A DNA stretch of 46,776 bases from the IMG/VR virus record IMGVR_UViG_3300025600_000026, positions 1 to 46,776 of that record, one strand, 5' to 3'. This document shows, in pieces, positions 11,897-42,405 of the stretch (the stretch's first letter is position 1; every line of letters begins with the position of its first letter). Source of the DNA: a virus (Duplodnaviria > Caudoviricetes). The translations under genes and the position numbers were made by a program. The notes under the pieces were generated by a model. It made no database searches. It was not told the origin of the DNA and worked only from the letters and a program-made list of their open reading frames with translations.

Positions 11897-13075
11897 ATGA
11901 ACTATTGTATTGATCCAACAGTTAGCGAGCCTATCATGCTTTTAAATAAGCACATCGGATTTGACGAAGAGGATGGAATGGGTATTGATGGAAGTATATT
12001 CCAACAGGAATTGCTTCAATTAGATACGCTTGGCAAAAAACGCATTCAAGTTTGGATTAATTCACCCGGTGGAGTAGTGACTGATGGTTACAATATTTAC
12101 TCTGCAATTCTCAAATCAAATACTCCAGTTGATACTTATTGCATCGGGGCCGCCGCTTCGATTGCGGGGGTAATATTTCAGGCAGGCAGAAAGCGCATAA
12201 TGTCTGATTATGGGTGGTTAATGTATCACAATCCTTTCGGTGGAACAGATGGTATTCTAAAGACAATGCAGGCAAGTATCATCAAAATGATCGAGCAGCG
12301 TTGCGGAATGTCTGAAGATGAAGTTTCCCGAATGATGGCCCGCACAACCTTCATTGCGGCAGGGGAGGCACTCAATATGAATCTTTGCGACAAAGTAGAT
12401 GCAAGCGTTGATGAGAATACGAAGTACCTGAGAAAGATTACCGATACAATGACTTTTCACAAAGAATGTAATTTAGTTTTAAATTCGATTTTAAATAATA
12501 ACCCAAAAATTAGTAATACAATGATTAAAGTATGTATGAAGCTGGGGCTTAATGATGGCACTCCAGAAGAAAGTATCGTTCAAGCCATTGACAGCATTAT
12601 GAATAAAGTAACTTTAGCAGAACAGGCTAAGGATGCCGCTATTCAGGAGGCTCAAAACAAAGCTAAAACAGCAGACGAGGAATTTGAAAAACTGAAAAAC
12701 AAATTCAAAAAGCTGGAAGAGGAAAAGAAAGCCAAAGATGAGGCGTATGATGCTTGCAAGGCTTCGCTCGATGCAATGACCGAAGATAAGCTGAAAGCCG
12801 AAAATGCAATGAAAGAAGAGGAAGCTAAAAACATGGTAACCAACTTTGCAAAACTTGGCCGTATCAAAAACGAAGCTACTGTTATTCTTAAATGGACCAA
12901 CATGGCAAAGGTTGACTTTGAAGGAACAAAATTAATGATTGAAGACCTTCCATTGAATAAGGTAGCAACAAAGGCGGTCGATGCCGAGGCTCAAAAATTA
13001 GGCGCCGGTGAAATACCAACGTCATCTATCGGATTGGCTGTAAAAAACAGACTGAAACGCGAAGGCAAAATTTAA
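11897..13075 (+). CDS. ClpP-type prohead protease fused to a coiled-coil scaffold
   Basis: INSPGG, GAAASIAGVI, LMYHNP motifs; K/E/A-rich C-terminal half. Confidence 0.9.
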   Translation: MNYCIDPTVSEPIMLLNKHIGFDEEDGMGIDGSIFQQELLQLDTLGKKRIQVWINSPGGVVTDGYNIYSAILKSNTPVDTYCIGAAASIAGVIFQAGRKRIMSDYGWLMYHNPFGGTDGILKTMQASIIKMIEQRCGMSEDEVSRMMARTTFIAAGEALNMNLCDKVDASVDENTKYLRKITDTMTFHKECNLVLNSILNNNPKISNTMIKVCMKLGLNDGTPEESIVQAIDSIMNKVTLAEQAKDAAIQEAQNKAKTADEEFEKLKNKFKKLEEEKKAKDEAYDACKASLDAMTEDKLKAENAMKEEEAKNMVTNFAKLGRIKNEATVILKWTNMAKVDFEGTKLMIEDLPLNKVATKAVDAEAQKLGAGEIPTSSIGLAVKNRLKREGKI

Positions 13076-23041: not shown

Positions 23042-24397
23042 ATGAAAATACTAAGAGGAGTATCGGGAAATATATTGACAAGTTTTAGCGGGGGTATAAG
23101 AAAGTTGCTTTATGTTGTCCAACTTGGCGGTTATGGCAGGCTTTATAATTGGTTCTGTACGCAACCACAAATAACTGGTATAAAATACGGGTACTTGTAT
23201 AATTGGTTGGCAGCAACTGATAGTCGAAATATTGCAAATATTGGATTTCATTTATCTACATATCAAGAGTTTGATACCCTTAGTATTTATTTAGGTGGTA
23301 GTTCTGGCGCTGGAATAAAAATGATGGAATCTGGTTCGCTGCATTGGGATACTCCATATTTTTCAGGAACCAATACGAGCAAATTTAACGCATACGGTAC
23401 AGGCCTTAGATCAGCATCAGGGGAGTATGTCAACATAAGACAATCAACCGAATTTATAACATTAGATTTCACATATGCCGTTGCAAATTTTTTCTTTAAT
23501 TGCGCCAAAAATTCTCTAAGCGATTTAGGATCTGGTCGTTCTGTCCGCCTCGTTAAGGACTCTATAACTCTAACTAATGGACAAACAGGAACATATACCG
23601 GAAATGACGGAAGGATTTATAAAACGATTTGCATCGGCACTCAGGAATGGTTATCTGAGAACCTTGCAGAAACCAAATACCGCAATGGTGATTTAATTGC
23701 AAAGGTAACCGACAACACTGCATGGGCGGCATTAACGACAGGTGCTATGTGTGCCTACAACAATGACGAGGCAAACGCATTTGAAACGGCAAGTATTGCT
23801 CCGGTGGGATTTCATGTGCCGAGCGACGCTGAATGGACAACGTTGCTGGATAATATTGATATATATGATTCGTTTGTTCAATATTGGCCTAATGCAGGCG
23901 GATACCTAAAAGAAGTCGGCCTTAACCACTGGATTGACCCGAATACTGGAGCGGTGGATTCTTATGGATTTAAGGCGATAGGATCAGGCAGCAGAGATTC
24001 TGCCGGTTCGTTTATTGATTCGGATTCCGGGAATGATACTATAAAAGACAGATTATATATATGGTCTATGACGGGGGCTGATAATTATGGGGGTGTATTA
24101 AATATGTTTTCTTTTGATTCTTTGGCTGCGATTAGTGTCATGCCAGTCAATTGCGGCAATTCTATTCGCCTAATCAAAGATGATTCTACATGGACGGCAG
24201 GCGACACCGTAACCGACGTAGACGGAAATGTTTACCCATTAATCAAAATAGGCGACATTGTAATCACTGCAAAGAATTGGAAATGTACGAAATTTGCAGA
24301 CGGTACTCCAATCCCTTTAGTCGAAGATAATACAGAATGGAGTTTATTAGAAACACCCGGGCAATGCATTTATGAAAATATTTTATTGAATCTGTAA
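23042..24397 (+). CDS. Fib_succ_major (FISUMP) domain putative adsorption protein
   Basis: Two copies each of YG.LYNW, GFH(L/V), S(V/I)RL(V/I)KD and DG..Y..I.IG. Confidence 0.8.
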   Translation: MKILRGVSGNILTSFSGGIRKLLYVVQLGGYGRLYNWFCTQPQITGIKYGYLYNWLAATDSRNIANIGFHLSTYQEFDTLSIYLGGSSGAGIKMMESGSLHWDTPYFSGTNTSKFNAYGTGLRSASGEYVNIRQSTEFITLDFTYAVANFFFNCAKNSLSDLGSGRSVRLVKDSITLTNGQTGTYTGNDGRIYKTICIGTQEWLSENLAETKYRNGDLIAKVTDNTAWAALTTGAMCAYNNDEANAFETASIAPVGFHVPSDAEWTTLLDNIDIYDSFVQYWPNAGGYLKEVGLNHWIDPNTGAVDSYGFKAIGSGSRDSAGSFIDSDSGNDTIKDRLYIWSMTGADNYGGVLNMFSFDSLAAISVMPVNCGNSIRLIKDDSTWTAGDTVTDVDGNVYPLIKIGDIVITAKNWKCTKFADGTPIPLVEDNTEWSLLETPGQCIYENILLNL

Positions 24398-26266: not shown

Positions 26267-26749
26267 ATGAAAGAAATACAATTAACACAGGGAAAAGTGG
26301 CATTGGTTGATGATGAAGATTTTGAGAATTTAAATCAATTTAAATGGTATGCGAATAGATGTAGGAGTATTTTTTACGCACACAGGGAAATAAACTCGCA
26401 TCGCGATAATAGAAAAATAATTCATATGCATAGGTGTTTAATTGGCCAGGAAGAAAATATGTTCGTGGACCATATTGATGGAAACGGATTAAATAATCAA
26501 AAATCAAACTTAAGACCATGCACTAACAGGCAGAATTTAATGAATAGGAGACCAAATAAAAATGCATCGTCTGTTTATAAAGGGGTAAATTACTACAAAT
26601 ACCAAAATAAAAAATATATTTCATTCATAAAAACAAATGAGAAGAAAATATATATTGGATCTTTTGATACCGAGATCGAAGCGGCAAAAGCATATGATGA
26701 AAAAGCCAAAGAACACTTTGGAGAATTTGCATGGTTGAATTTCCCGTAA
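26267..26749 (+). CDS. HNH-AP2 endonuclease
   Basis: VDHIDGNGLNNQKSNLR HNH; S.YKGV...IGSF.TE.EAAKAYD..A...FGEFA.LNF AP2 domain. Confidence 0.9.
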   Translation: MKEIQLTQGKVALVDDEDFENLNQFKWYANRCRSIFYAHREINSHRDNRKIIHMHRCLIGQEENMFVDHIDGNGLNNQKSNLRPCTNRQNLMNRRPNKNASSVYKGVNYYKYQNKKYISFIKTNEKKIYIGSFDTEIEAAKAYDEKAKEHFGEFAWLNFP

Positions 26750-27596: not shown

Positions 27597-27851
27597 ATGG
27601 AAAATAAAGAACCAATTTACATTCGAGAATCGGGATTAAGATTTACTCATATTCTCATTAAAAAGGTAGGCAAAATGCATCAATCTCAATTTGAATACGA
27701 CTTTCAACAAATTGAAAAACATTCTATTTTATCCAAGATGATCCCGTGCACATTATTCAGAAAAACAACGGCTGAATGTATTGAATACATTGAATCATTT
27801 TTTAAAACAAAATTAAAAGAATCGGAATATACTATTAAATCAAATATATAA
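27597..27851 (+). CDS. hypothetical protein
   Basis: Own TATCTTTG box at 27569-27576. Confidence 0.6.
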   Translation: MENKEPIYIRESGLRFTHILIKKVGKMHQSQFEYDFQQIEKHSILSKMIPCTLFRKTTAECIEYIESFFKTKLKESEYTIKSNI

Positions 27852-28693
27852 TGGCAGACATTAAACAAGTAATCCCGTTAATCCAAAAGTGGGAAGGCAG
27901 GTTTTCCAATGATGATAATTATTCGGGTGGGGCTACAATGACGAAAGATTCTGTTTATATTTACACGCTGAGCAATCCAACAACGAACGAAATAAGATAT
28001 GTTGGCAAAACATGCAAGTCATTAAAAACAAGGCTAAACGGACATCTGAAAGATAAAAGGAATAATTATAGGTCATGTTGGATTAAATCTTTATTAAATG
28101 ATGGATTAATCCCTAAAATAGAAACGATAGACGTATCAGATAATGACAACTGGCAATTAATGGAAAGGTACTGGATTTCTCAATTTAAAACATGGGGATT
28201 TAAATTAGTTAATTATACCGACGGAGGGGAAAGCCTAAGTGGGTATAAGCACTCAAAAGAGACGCGAGTTAAGTTGTCTAAATCCCAAACAGGCAAAACG
28301 TATAGCGACGAAAGTAAAAATAAAATGAGTAATTCAAGAATCAAATATGAAAAAGAAAATAAAACTGAATTTTCAAAAAGATATGACACCCTAAAGGAGA
28401 CTATTAAAAACAAAAGCGAGGAACAAAAAATCGAACGTAAAAATAAAATGTCGATTAGTATGAAGTTGGCGCATTTAAATATGAATAGCGAAACAAAAAA
28501 ATTAAGGGGTAATAATATAAGTAAATCAAAAGGATTAAGATGCGCGTTAATTGACGCCAATGGTAAAATATTGAAAGAATACAACTCATGCAATATGGCA
28601 TCAAAAGATATTGAAAATATATGTCACGAATCTGTTGTTAAGTCATGCAAATTAAATATACCAATAAATAATTTAATGTTTAAATTTATTTAA
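27851..28693 (+). CDS. GIY-YIG/NUMOD3 homing endonuclease fused to a GH108 lysin N-terminal remnant
   Basis: aa1-30 MADIKQVIPLIQKWEG..ND...GGATM; then YIY.L...IRYVGKT..RL..H, E.YWI, N.T.GG and KHSKETRVKLSKSQTG. Confidence 0.85.
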   Translation: MADIKQVIPLIQKWEGRFSNDDNYSGGATMTKDSVYIYTLSNPTTNEIRYVGKTCKSLKTRLNGHLKDKRNNYRSCWIKSLLNDGLIPKIETIDVSDNDNWQLMERYWISQFKTWGFKLVNYTDGGESLSGYKHSKETRVKLSKSQTGKTYSDESKNKMSNSRIKYEKENKTEFSKRYDTLKETIKNKSEEQKIERKNKMSISMKLAHLNMNSETKKLRGNNISKSKGLRCALIDANGKILKEYNSCNMASKDIENICHESVVKSCKLNIPINNLMFKFI

Positions 28694-35578: not shown

Positions 35579-35920
35579 ATGAAAACAGGAATCGATTTGA
35601 TCACAGAAGAAAGAAAAGAACAAATTGAAAAACACGGATGGGATCACGATGACGAATATGTATCAGGTCAACTATTGAGCGCATCTAAGTATTGTCTAAC
35701 TTTGAGCATTTCTGATTATCCAGACGATTGGGGAGATTGGTTTTCTGAAAAAGTCATGAAAAAAAAGAAAAGAATGTCATGCTTCGCCTTCGATATTGAA
35801 ATGAAGAAAATTGCGGGGGCTTTTATTGTCGCAGAAATTGACAGGCTTAAAAATATGGTTAAATCTATTGCGGATGATATAGATAGAGCTCAAATATCGG
35901 AAATGAACAGCATAGAATAA
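35579..35920 (+). CDS. hypothetical phage protein
   Basis: MKTGIDLI.EER.EQI.KHG..HDD...AGA.I.AEIDRL, a common phage family. Confidence 0.7.
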   Translation: MKTGIDLITEERKEQIEKHGWDHDDEYVSGQLLSASKYCLTLSISDYPDDWGDWFSEKVMKKKKRMSCFAFDIEMKKIAGAFIVAEIDRLKNMVKSIADDIDRAQISEMNSIE

Positions 35921-35921
35921 C

Positions 35922-36092
35922 ATGAAAAAACTACTTTTATTCTTATTTTTACTCTCTATTTTATCCTCATGCGTGACAGTTAAGAGATCACATTCAAAAG
36001 TAATGTATGCTAAACGAGCGGCATTTATTAAGTCGCACGGGGAGCCACAAAACGAATTTTTTGATCGGAAATGTCCGAATGTGTTTAGATAA
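35922..36092 (+). CDS. small lipoprotein, not in the ORF track
   Basis: MKKLLLFLFLLSILSS-C lipobox, 56 aa. Confidence 0.65.
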   Translation: MKKLLLFLFLLSILSSCVTVKRSHSKVMYAKRAAFIKSHGEPQNEFFDRKCPNVFR

Positions 36093-36096
36093 TTAC

Positions 36097-36104
36097 TATA
36101 TTTG
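36097..36104 (+). promoter_or_regulatory. -7 promoter box of the tmRNA gene
   Basis: TATATTTG just upstream of the acceptor piece. Confidence 0.7.
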
Positions 36105-36109
36105 TACCT

Positions 36110-36400
36110 TATAATATCCGTTGAAGTTATTTGAAAAGCTGTTAAGACGTGGGTTCGACTCCCACCACCTCCACGCTAATCGCCAATTAGTAACGTTTCT
36201 TCCTATTTTCTTCGATATAAAAGAAACTTGGCTCCGGGGGTGACTGGTTTTGATTAGCAGAAAAGTAGATTAATTGAGGGTATTACAGCCAATAACAGGC
36301 AAAACAATTGAAATGAAAATGGCGGCTTAGAGCTGTACAGATTCAAAATTCAGTAAGCATCAGGTGTAGTTCGTCATCTAAACGTGGCACGACTGAATTT
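36110..36400 (+). ncRNA. ssrA: circularly permuted (two-piece) tmRNA
   Basis: Acceptor piece CTGTTAA-GAC-GTGGG-TTCGACT-CCCAC-CACCTCC-A (to 36173) precedes coding piece GGGGGTG-ACTGGTTTTGA-TTAGCAG (from 36236); G3.U70; ATAACA then tag GKTIEMKMAA* (36298-36330). Confidence 0.88.
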
Positions 36401-36553
36401 ATTTTTAAAATTTGTTTGAATTGTCAAAAAGATTGATTAATATTGTCACGGTTAATACAATTTATTTTAAGAATATTTTTGAGACCGTCGAGATGACAGG
36501 CAGACCGGATGGAAGTTCCGGTTTTAATTTCGTAAAATTTGTAAAAAAATAAC

Positions 36554-40382: not shown

Positions 40383-40460
40383 AAAATGATTAAGCAAGAA
40401 GCCGACCGCATCAAATCAAATAACACATTTTTATTTGATAATTTTTTTGTATCTTTGTAA

Positions 40461-40542
40461 TGCTTTTGGGAGGAAGCGCAAACGAAAATATTTTTAAACT
40501 GCCGTTGTTCCGCGAAATCCTCCCATTTCAAAGATCAGCGGC
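40461..40542 (+). ncRNA. kissing-loop 5' leader C
   Basis: Loops GGGAGG (40468-40473) and CCTCCC (40519-40524); starts 4 nt after TATCTTTG. Confidence 0.7.
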
Positions 40543-40558
40543 TTTTAATTTTATGATT

Positions 40559-41117
40559 ATGAAAACAATTGAATTAACACAAGGAAAGATTGCATTGATT
40601 AACGATGAAGATTTTGAATGGCTTAATCAGTTCAAGTGGTATGCACACAAGGATAGAAATACTTTTTATGCAGTAAGAAACCTCCCCAGAGTTAACGGGA
40701 AACAGACGACCCAGCCAATGCATAAATTCATTATGGGAGACAACCCTTTGGAATTAGATATAGACCACCGTGATGGAGATGGCTGCAATAACCAGAAGTA
40801 ATCTGAGATTTTGCACCAGATCAGAAAAAAAGATGAATCAAAAGCCAAGAGAAAACTGCTCTTCTATCTATAAGGGAGCGCATTGGAATAAACACGCAAA
40901 TAAATGGCGGGCGCGAATATGGACAGATGGCAAACTAATTCATTTAGGGTACTTCGATATTGAGGAAGATGCCGCACGAGCCTATAATGCAGCAGCAAAA
41001 TTAGCCTTTGGAGAGTTTGCTAAATTGAATGCGATCGAAATGATGAAAAGCGGAAATACAATTGAATTTTACGAACAGGTTTTAAAACAGTTAGAAGATG
41101 AAAGTAAAAAGAGTTGA
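40559..41117 (+). pseudogene. frameshifted HNH-AP2 endonuclease
   Basis: NNQK* / SNLRFC split across frames near 40795; paralogs read NNQKSNLR and NNQRGNLR. Confidence 0.8.
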
Positions 41118-41825: not shown

Positions 41826-41910
41826 TATGATGTACCAGATCATAAAGATATTTCAACTTAATTGTTGAATGAAGCCCCAAAGATTGTCTGGTACACATTC
41901 GGAGGGGCTT
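41826..41910 (+). ncRNA. kissing-loop 5' leader B
   Basis: Loops GTACCAG (41832-41838) and CTGGTAC (41888-41894); starts 4 nt after TATATTTG. Confidence 0.75.
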
Positions 41911-41925
41911 TGCATTTACATTAAA

Positions 41926-42405
41926 ATGATGAAGGAAATAAAATTAACGCAAAATCAATTTGCATTAGTAGATGACGAGGATTTTGAACATCTTAATCAA
42001 TTTAAGTGGTGTGCCCACAAGCGCGGGAATACGTTTTATGCGGAAAGATCCGTTCCGATTAACGGGAAATATAAGACTAAGGCAATGCATAAATTTATAA
42101 TGTGTGATAATCCATTTAAATCAGACGTAGACCACAGAGATGGTAATGGGTTAAATAATCAAAGGGGAAATTTAAGGTTTTGCACGGATCAACAAAACCA
42201 AATGAATGCAAAGCCGAGAAAAAACTGCTCATCTAATTACAAAGGCGTTAGTTTGCATAAACCAACAAATAAATGGCGTGCACGCATAACGATAGAGGGA
42301 AAATTAATTTATTTTGGCCTCTTTAATAGCGAAGAAGACGCGGCCCGTATATATGATGATGCCGCAATAAAATATTACGGAGAATTTGCACGTTTAAATT
42401 TTTAA
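41926..42405 (+). CDS. HNH-AP2 endonuclease
   Basis: VDHRDGNGLNNQRGNLR; AP2 KWRARI...F.SEEDAA..YD.AA..YYGEFARLNF. Confidence 0.9.
   Translation: MMKEIKLTQNQFALVDDEDFEHLNQFKWCAHKRGNTFYAERSVPINGKYKTKAMHKFIMCDNPFKSDVDHRDGNGLNNQRGNLRFCTDQQNQMNAKPRKNCSSNYKGVSLHKPTNKWRARITIEGKLIYFGLFNSEEDAARIYDDAAIKYYGEFARLNF

Follow-up and report, generated by a model that had tools for sequence, protein, structure and literature searches.

A compact permuted tmRNA gene with a predicted kink-turn in helix 2 in a phage likely infecting Bacteroidota

Our analysis confirmed a permuted tmRNA gene in the DNA of a phage, a linear virus contig of 46.8 kb with an estimated completeness of 93% that was analysed over its whole length of 46,776 nt (here called the window). 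Judged from its sequence and those of its relatives, the gene probably makes a working two-piece rescue RNA in a Bacteroidota host: an accessory, compact tmRNA with a predicted kink-turn, for which an alpha-like descent is the likelier one. ARAGORN called a permuted tmRNA (tmRNA*) with the tag GKTIEMKMAA at 36084-36421, and the Rfam model RF04321 matched at 36115-36330 with 62.3 bits (E 8.8e-10), above its gathering score of 47. The gene order in the window is the one that defines this model, with the 3′ tRNA-like part first, then an intervening segment and then the 5′ part. Both programs agree with an earlier note on this DNA, which had proposed a permuted tmRNA, and every element named in it was recovered in place. 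All features of the gene lie on the plus strand. The acceptor piece, i.e. the normal 3′ part that would be transcribed first, spans 36112..36173 (its start is predicted) and is supported by ARAGORN, Rfam, sequence and covariation in 44 relatives. It comprises the helix-2 3′ strand CTGTTAA (36139-45), which pairs with TTAGCAG at 36254-60, followed by GAC (36146-48), the T arm GTGGG-TTCGACT-CCCAC (36149-65), the acceptor strand CACCTCC (36166-72) and the discriminator A73 (A36173). CCA is not encoded, with C-G directly after A36173. An intervening segment of 62 nt (36174..36235), whose length and sequence vary among relatives (45-177 nt), is predicted to be removed. The 5′ part of the coding piece (36236..36297) holds the acceptor-stem strand GGGGGTG (36236-42), which completes a 7-bp acceptor stem with G3.U70, the D loop and the helix-2 5′ strand to 36285. 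Directly after ATAACA, a resume context of the TAA type, the resume codon GGC at 36298 opens the tag frame GGC...GCG GCT TAG (GKTIEMKMAA*, 36298..36330), which was called by ARAGORN, is kept in relatives and has an alanine-rich end and a stop.

A closing stem-loop (AAATTCAGT/ACTGAATTT) followed by a T-rich run at 36346..36400 is likely the 3′ end of the coding piece. This hairpin, proposed in the earlier note, folds better than most shuffled sequences (z -2.5, 3 of 200 equally good), and in relatives its base is conserved while its interior is exchanged; a simple terminator scan missed it. The intervening segment had also been described as structured. Its GCCAA/TTGGC pairing is indeed possible, but it is one of two spacer folds, and the segment folds weakly (z -1.8, 13 of 200 shuffles equally good). 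Folding of the whole precursor favours a 5′ hairpin CTAAT/ATTAG instead, which is retained in one relative (L551), and the precursor fold itself is no better than shuffles (z -1.5, 20 of 200 equally good). Since the folding energies of precursor and spacer are not significant, the case for the gene rests on the models and on covariation. Upstream of the gene, TATATTTG at 36097..36104 (plus strand) is a predicted -7 promoter box of the Bacteroidota primary sigma factor, for which TAnnTTTG is the consensus (PMC7366714). The window holds 87 such boxes against 65 +/- 7.5 expected, a number reached in none of 100 shuffles, and a box occupies the same place in 13 of the 48 genes of the short class and in 1 of the 38 genes of the long class (classes described below). 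A 56-aa open reading frame at 35922..36092 (plus strand) ends with its stop 5 nt upstream of the promoter box and matched no Pfam family. It contains a lipoprotein-like signal, LLSILSSC, which we take to be a lipobox motif. Because this frame is near-identical in the close relatives L126, L127 and L129, it appears to move with the tmRNA cassette. In the crAss-like phage cr10_1, an annotated lipoprotein gene lies directly after the tmRNA.

The permuted order could in principle be a product of assembly, or the locus a host ssrA remnant of the attP type that has no function. In favour of such readings, the DNA is a linear metagenomic contig, and proviruses and integrase carriers occur among the phage's relatives (5 of 12 long records). 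Contigs from other sequencing runs argue against such an origin. Two of them, single contigs from two different runs that carry no mark as a possible source, cross the junction, with 0 differences over 35800-36286 (record 4) and 30 differences over 35922-36311 (record 12). DNA runs with at least half of the sampled words numbered five, all from peat and all from 2016, and two of them are marked as possible source; in some run contigs segments of the spacer are replaced. A tag-based scan found six viral contigs. One of these shares 6,073 nt with the window without a difference. Three others are variants that are 75-88% identical over about 530 nt, with largely different neighbours, spacers of 61, 75 and 177 nt and an unchanged gene order. 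By BLAST, the block conserved among relatives lies at about 35918-36445, with differing flanks. A BLAST search of the locus against cultured phages gave T-arm matches only and no record covering 80%. The peptide GKTIEMKMAA recurs in L126-L130, with a synonymous change in its codons, and L551 combines the tag GKSLEMKMAA with a spacer of 150 nt. Thus the tRNA-like ends and the tag are kept while the spacer varies, as expected of an excised part. In addition, base changes within the class are compensatory, the two tRNA-like halves are complete, the tag frame is intact, and no tyrosine integrase (PF00589) was found in the 93%-complete record. Integrase carriers and tmRNA carriers did not overlap among the long records (0 of the 5 with integrase carry the tmRNA, both tmRNA-bearing records being among the 7 without), although these numbers are small. 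The chimera or remnant reading is largely refuted, and we regard it as very improbable. GGTTCGA, a tRNA-like T-arm motif, occurs within the spacers of two crAss-like loci (L121, L122) and directly before the L551 gene; these copies are possibly tRNA remnants.

The phage most likely infects Bacteroidota, as the earlier note had proposed and as its terminase, its sheath, its protein families and the excess of -7 boxes suggest. In searches with 32 and 75 proteins we identified genes for terminase, portal, protease, sheath, baseplate and endolysin, consistent with a contractile tail. The best bit scores of the terminase were to Flavobacterium phages (42.6%, E 5e-50, half of the protein), and a match to a Bacteroides phage reached 92% coverage. 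Relatives of the sheath occurred in 4 of 201 Bacteroidota genomes, the only phylum in this search, which had no control phylum. In agreement with the earlier note, no smpB was found in the record, though the missing 7% leaves some room. Bacteroidota ssrA proved to be a one-piece gene, as had been stated. In a sample of 151 genomes from the phylum of a Bacteroidales genome, 144 carry the standard gene and one carries a permuted gene, namely the seed genome, which has both forms and whose permuted copy sits on a 97-kb contig. An exact-pattern scan of a species-level genome collection, which would miss other permuted types, gave two matches, both to Bacteroidota metagenome-assembled genomes. Within the phage group the gene is sparse: of 11 long records selected by capsid similarity one has a permuted tmRNA (the twelfth long record was picked for having it), so the tmRNA is likely an accessory cassette. 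The window further encodes a single tRNA-Thr(UGU) at 497-570, directly before the small terminase, while the relatives L127 and L130 have a tRNA-Arg(UCU) about 4 kb upstream of the tmRNA. Other genes of the window are a Clp-type head maturation protease (11897-13075), a protein with a Fib_succ_major domain in the tail region (23042-24397), an endonuclease-like gene containing NUMOD3 (27851-28693) and three related HNH/AP2 homing-endonuclease-like genes (26267-26749, 40460-41117, apparently split over two frames, and 41869-42405).

Pattern scans placed the window gene in a compact class of permuted tmRNAs. A scan of 120 loci out of an estimated 410, together with 51 loci from a second scan whose pattern favoured host-like letters, gave 133 distinct permuted genes including that of the window. 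Among these, the spacing between the 5′ G and the resume codon has a bimodal distribution, with values of 49-77 nt and 79-113 nt. Four loci with unreliable calls (L018, L033, L048 and L088) were dropped and the resume codon was moved by hand in six genes, after which 68 short and 61 long genes remained. The distance in the window is 62 nt. In Bacteroidota one-piece genes it is 89-102 nt for 69 of the 71, and the remaining two look miscalled. The crAss-like phage cr10_1 and the cultured Chryseobacterium phage MA9V-3 are members of the class, and MA9V-3 thus carries the compact permuted form. Helix 2 of the window gene pairs to 36285, which leaves 12 nt before the resume codon; on this predicted structure pseudoknot 1 cannot form, as there is no room for it. 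Two-piece tmRNAs typically retain pseudoknots 1 and 2, as described in PMC3985003, and pseudoknot 1 is described as replaceable in E. coli (PMC3968760; PMC4236655). Loss of pseudoknot 1 is not unique to the class, since L262, L312 and about 25 of 96 alpha-type viral genes are also short (46-72 nt in the latter, from crude resume calls). Nine alpha-type viral permuted genes (L398, L411, L423, L450, L461, L488, L493, L495 and L502) reach the resume codon within 46-48 nt of the 5′ end, a distance below that of the compact class.

The base pairing of these genes is maintained by compensatory changes. Across the T stem, the acceptor stem and helix 2a of 44 of the 48 non-redundant short genes, 89.5% of cells are paired, and two-sided changes amount to 110 cells versus 37 +/- 5 in shuffles. 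Many acceptor and T-arm letters of the relatives, including G3.U70, were fixed by the search pattern, but the positions free of it covary and pair in all 44 genes. An alanine-rich tag frame was found by a fixed rule in 44 of the 48 short genes (shuffle mean 0.28). GGC is the resume codon in 33 of the 48, and CCA is encoded in 6 of 48 short versus 35 of 38 long genes. Many tags of the class end in AVA or MAV instead of the host LAA or MAA; in Bacteroidota one-piece genes an MAA end occurs in 25 of 69 tags and a glycine start in 29 of 69. At 36288-36300 the window shows GCC and GGC separated by 7 nt, which would allow a hairpin of 3 bp across the resume codon. Such a GCC..GGC arrangement is present in 16 of 68 class genes (shuffle mean 5.9, maximum 11), and a GTC/GAC version occurs in L205 and L023; with a stem this short and genes that are related, we mention the hairpin as a hint.

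Helix 2 of the window gene is predicted to end in a kink-turn-like motif that would bend the RNA before the resume codon. A kink-turn consists of a canonical stem, G.A/A.G pairs and a second stem. Its published description includes a 3-nt bulge and tandem pairs, and the window pattern agrees with the sequence criteria for the motif: an 8-bp C-stem, a GTT bulge and GA/GA tandem pairs. On the bulged strand (36112..36124, plus strand), identified in a pattern search with shuffles, the C-stem TAATATCC (36112-19) is followed by the bulge GTT (36120-22) and by GA (36123-24); the partner strand, in the coding piece on the same strand, consists of GA (36276-77) and GGGTATTA (36278-85). When a stem of 4 bp or more was required at the expected distance, the pattern was found in position in 25 of 68 short viral permuted genes (shuffle maximum 8), in 41 of 61 and 23 of 41 long viral genes (maximum 7 and 7) and in 68 of 96 alpha-type viral permuted genes (maximum 11). 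Counts in one-piece genes were 7 of 71 for Bacteroidota and 3 of 29 for others (maximum 7 and 4), so that in Bacteroidota one-piece genes the pattern appears near background. The strict pattern is absent in 43 of the 68 short genes, including the crAss-like ones, and the 3b.3n position pairs in 8 of 23. A comparison with shuffled partners gave 103 of 115 observed against a shuffle mean of 75.5, an excess that is inflated because the rows had been picked for pairing. By eye, we also recognised the pattern in three RF04321 seed rows of the alpha type, in the alignment from the supplement of PMC11915505. Twelve Bacteroidota one-piece genes with tags of the ADDYSYAMAA type (L238-L259) show a kink-like 5′-strand pattern, GTTGCAC-TCC-GA, which may be a chance register of helix 2c. 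Two cyanophage-like permuted genes (L262, L312) with spacers of 5-6 nt and without pseudoknot 1 show a kink-turn pattern whose bulge lies in the coding strand. In the accessible text of the open-access papers listed by the searches, no kink-turn of tmRNA helix 2 is described.

The origin of the class is where the signals are mixed. We give about even odds, and preference, to descent of the class from an alpha-like gene that had been permuted before and became tuned to Bacteroidota hosts. The other origin, which we hold possible though with less confidence, is a permutation of its own: a Bacteroidota one-piece ssrA captured by a phage would have been permuted in a fourth lineage, and its kink-turn would be convergent. 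The letters of the D loop and of helix 2a are host-like, the GGC resume codon and the mostly missing CCA fit a host-derived gene, and the alpha, beta and cyanobacterial models all fail on the window. In the tRNA-like part, Gly-tag Bacteroidota genes were the best match for 25 of the 48 short genes and long viral permuted genes for 15, in a set for which the second scan had favoured host-like letters. Helix 2b/2c of the same 48 genes scored best to alpha-type genes in 29 cases, to long genes in 9, to other one-piece genes in 9, to other Bacteroidota in 1 and to Gly-tag Bacteroidota in 0. For the window gene itself, long viral permuted genes gave the best score in either partition, which speaks against an own permutation. 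So does the end of helix 2, which matches that of permuted genes in position and letters (L264 compared to L204 and L213), while GTAG is found there in 41 of 49 Bacteroidota one-piece genes versus 2 of 48 short genes. Convergence of the kink is nevertheless possible, since GTAGA and GTTGA are one change apart, a TGA motif is present at this site in 8 of 25 other one-piece genes, and the reversed kink of the cyanophage-like genes indicates that the motif can arise more than once.

Phylogenetic analysis bears on the same question. In a tree of 96 rows and 117 columns, which was built without cyanobacterial or alphaproteobacterial chromosomal genes and in which most forks are open, nearly all one-piece genes fall into a starred group that holds one of 22 short genes and leaves out the other 21, the window's included. 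Cyanobacterial genes of the host type were not encountered in the viral-contig scan (0 found). On the 117 columns, the AU test rejected a grouping of short genes with Gly-tag Bacteroidota, the most similar Bacteroidota subgroup (p=0.005), but did not reject short genes with all Bacteroidota (p=0.16), as an own permutation would have it, as well as all permuted genes together (p=0.47) and short genes alone (p=0.24). No one-piece intermediate was found. Given the mixed signal of tree and partitions, and a helix-2 end that resembles alpha-type and other viral permuted genes, the independent permutation of a host ssrA put forward in the earlier note is unsupported, and descent from a gene that was already permuted is the origin we favour.

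The form as such is already catalogued. Buchholz 2022 (PMC9004378) reported 53 two-piece calls among 133 phage tmRNA types, and its Table S1 gives the permuted form for Cellulophaga phage phi4:1 as well as for 13 of the 14 crAss-like rows. The available part of its text discusses marine alpha, gamma and cyanobacterial lineages only; for the genes of Bacteroidota phages it gives no structure, and it does not present them as a lineage of their own. GenBank tmRNA annotations on crAss-like and Chryseobacterium phages also read as permuted with ARAGORN. Novelty of the form, as assumed in the earlier note, is therefore not upheld, and what is added here are the compact class without pseudoknot 1, the kink-turn-like end of helix 2 and the tests of origin. 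The compact class is not described in the accessible text of the open-access papers listed. Nawrocki 2025 (PMC11915505) presents a database of 97,179 sequences, has 79 phage sequences and names three bacterial clades; this database and the table of forms by phylum may already include permuted entries of Bacteroidota or phages and so bear on novelty. The permuted tmRNAs of Bacteroidota phages (phi4:1, crAss-like phages and MA9V-3) share the permuted order and a host group with one-piece genes, and cr10_1 and MA9V-3 further resemble the window gene in the short distance to the resume codon and in glycine-start tags. The window gene differs from them by its tag and by its location in a 47-kb contractile-tailed phage. 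With two-piece tmRNAs of Alphaproteobacteria and their phages (RF01849; Melnitz, pelagimyophages) it shares the permuted order, and with the alpha-type viral genes the helix-2 end GTT-GA/GA (the 68 of 96 given above). Unlike these, it has no match to the RF01849 model, a canonical T loop that is not of the alpha type, a tag starting with Gly rather than AND, and no pseudoknot 1. The betaproteobacterial (RF01850) and marine cyanobacterial (RF01851) two-piece forms also have the permuted order, but the window scored 42.4 bits (cut-off 84, model positions 64-180 only) and 29 bits (cut-off 70, model positions 50-127 only), both being partial matches to the tRNA-like domain. The cyanophage-like L262 and L312, also without pseudoknot 1, differ by their short spacers and the kink on the opposite strand. 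Bacteroidota one-piece tmRNAs (RF00023) share D loop and helix 2a letters, the glycine resume codon, the MAA end and a CCA that is often not encoded; they differ in gene order, in the 89-102 nt that separate the 5′ G from the resume codon and include pseudoknot 1, and in the helix end GCATG/CATGTAG, which is absent in the window. On Cellulophaga phage phi40:1 (L386) we noted an unannotated one-piece tmRNA with a long tag frame at 701-1060 on the minus strand, overlapping an annotated hypothetical gene.

Following the pathway described in PMC11915505 and PMC3985003, the main sigma factor of the host would transcribe a single precursor of acceptor piece, spacer and coding piece. Folding of this precursor would form the tRNA-like domain. 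Cleavage by host RNase P is expected immediately 5′ of G36236, and the end after A36173 would be completed by 3′ trimming and by the host CCA-adding enzyme. Base pairing in the acceptor stem (7 bp) and in helix 2 (about 24 bp) would hold the two pieces together, and the putative kink-turn would bend the RNA directly before the resume codon. Host alanyl-tRNA synthetase may then charge the RNA via G3.U70, and its delivery would rely on SmpB and EF-Tu of the host. With GGC 36298 as the resume codon, translation would add (A)GKTIEMKMAA, whose MAA is a common end of host tags. The likely role is accessory ribosome rescue with host factors, and the most likely benefit to the phage is that the cassette would add rescue capacity in lytic growth. 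The RNA could also act as a decoy or modifier that competes with host tmRNA for SmpB, or whose tag spares or redirects phage proteins. Such a role would suit the minimal gene and the many class tags ending in AVA or MAV, and a tmRNA reduced to its tRNA-like domain, of the phage DS6A type, is reported to inhibit host tmRNA. We consider it unlikely, because the tag frame and its alanine-rich end are kept in 44 of 48 genes, and the window copy ends in MAA like many host tags. Beyond the preferred role in accessory rescue, one may imagine that phages moved permuted tmRNA across phyla and retuned it to Bacteroidota with their one-piece genes and reduced it to a minimal form free of pseudoknot 1, that the kink-turn replaces this pseudoknot in placing the resume codon and is general in two-piece tmRNAs though so far unrecognised, and that the phage copy sustains rescue while host defences act on translation. 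As a whole this scenario is doubtful.

Since the form was already catalogued, the surprise of the finding is limited. If it works as predicted, the class would be a natural minimal tmRNA of about 230 nt without pseudoknot 1, and the long-standing question of what fixes the resume codon, and whether the helix-2 kink can replace the pseudoknot, would become testable. The cultured phage MA9V-3 offers a bench system for asking why phages carry tmRNA, and the class bears on how often tmRNA permutation arose and on its transfer by phages between phyla.
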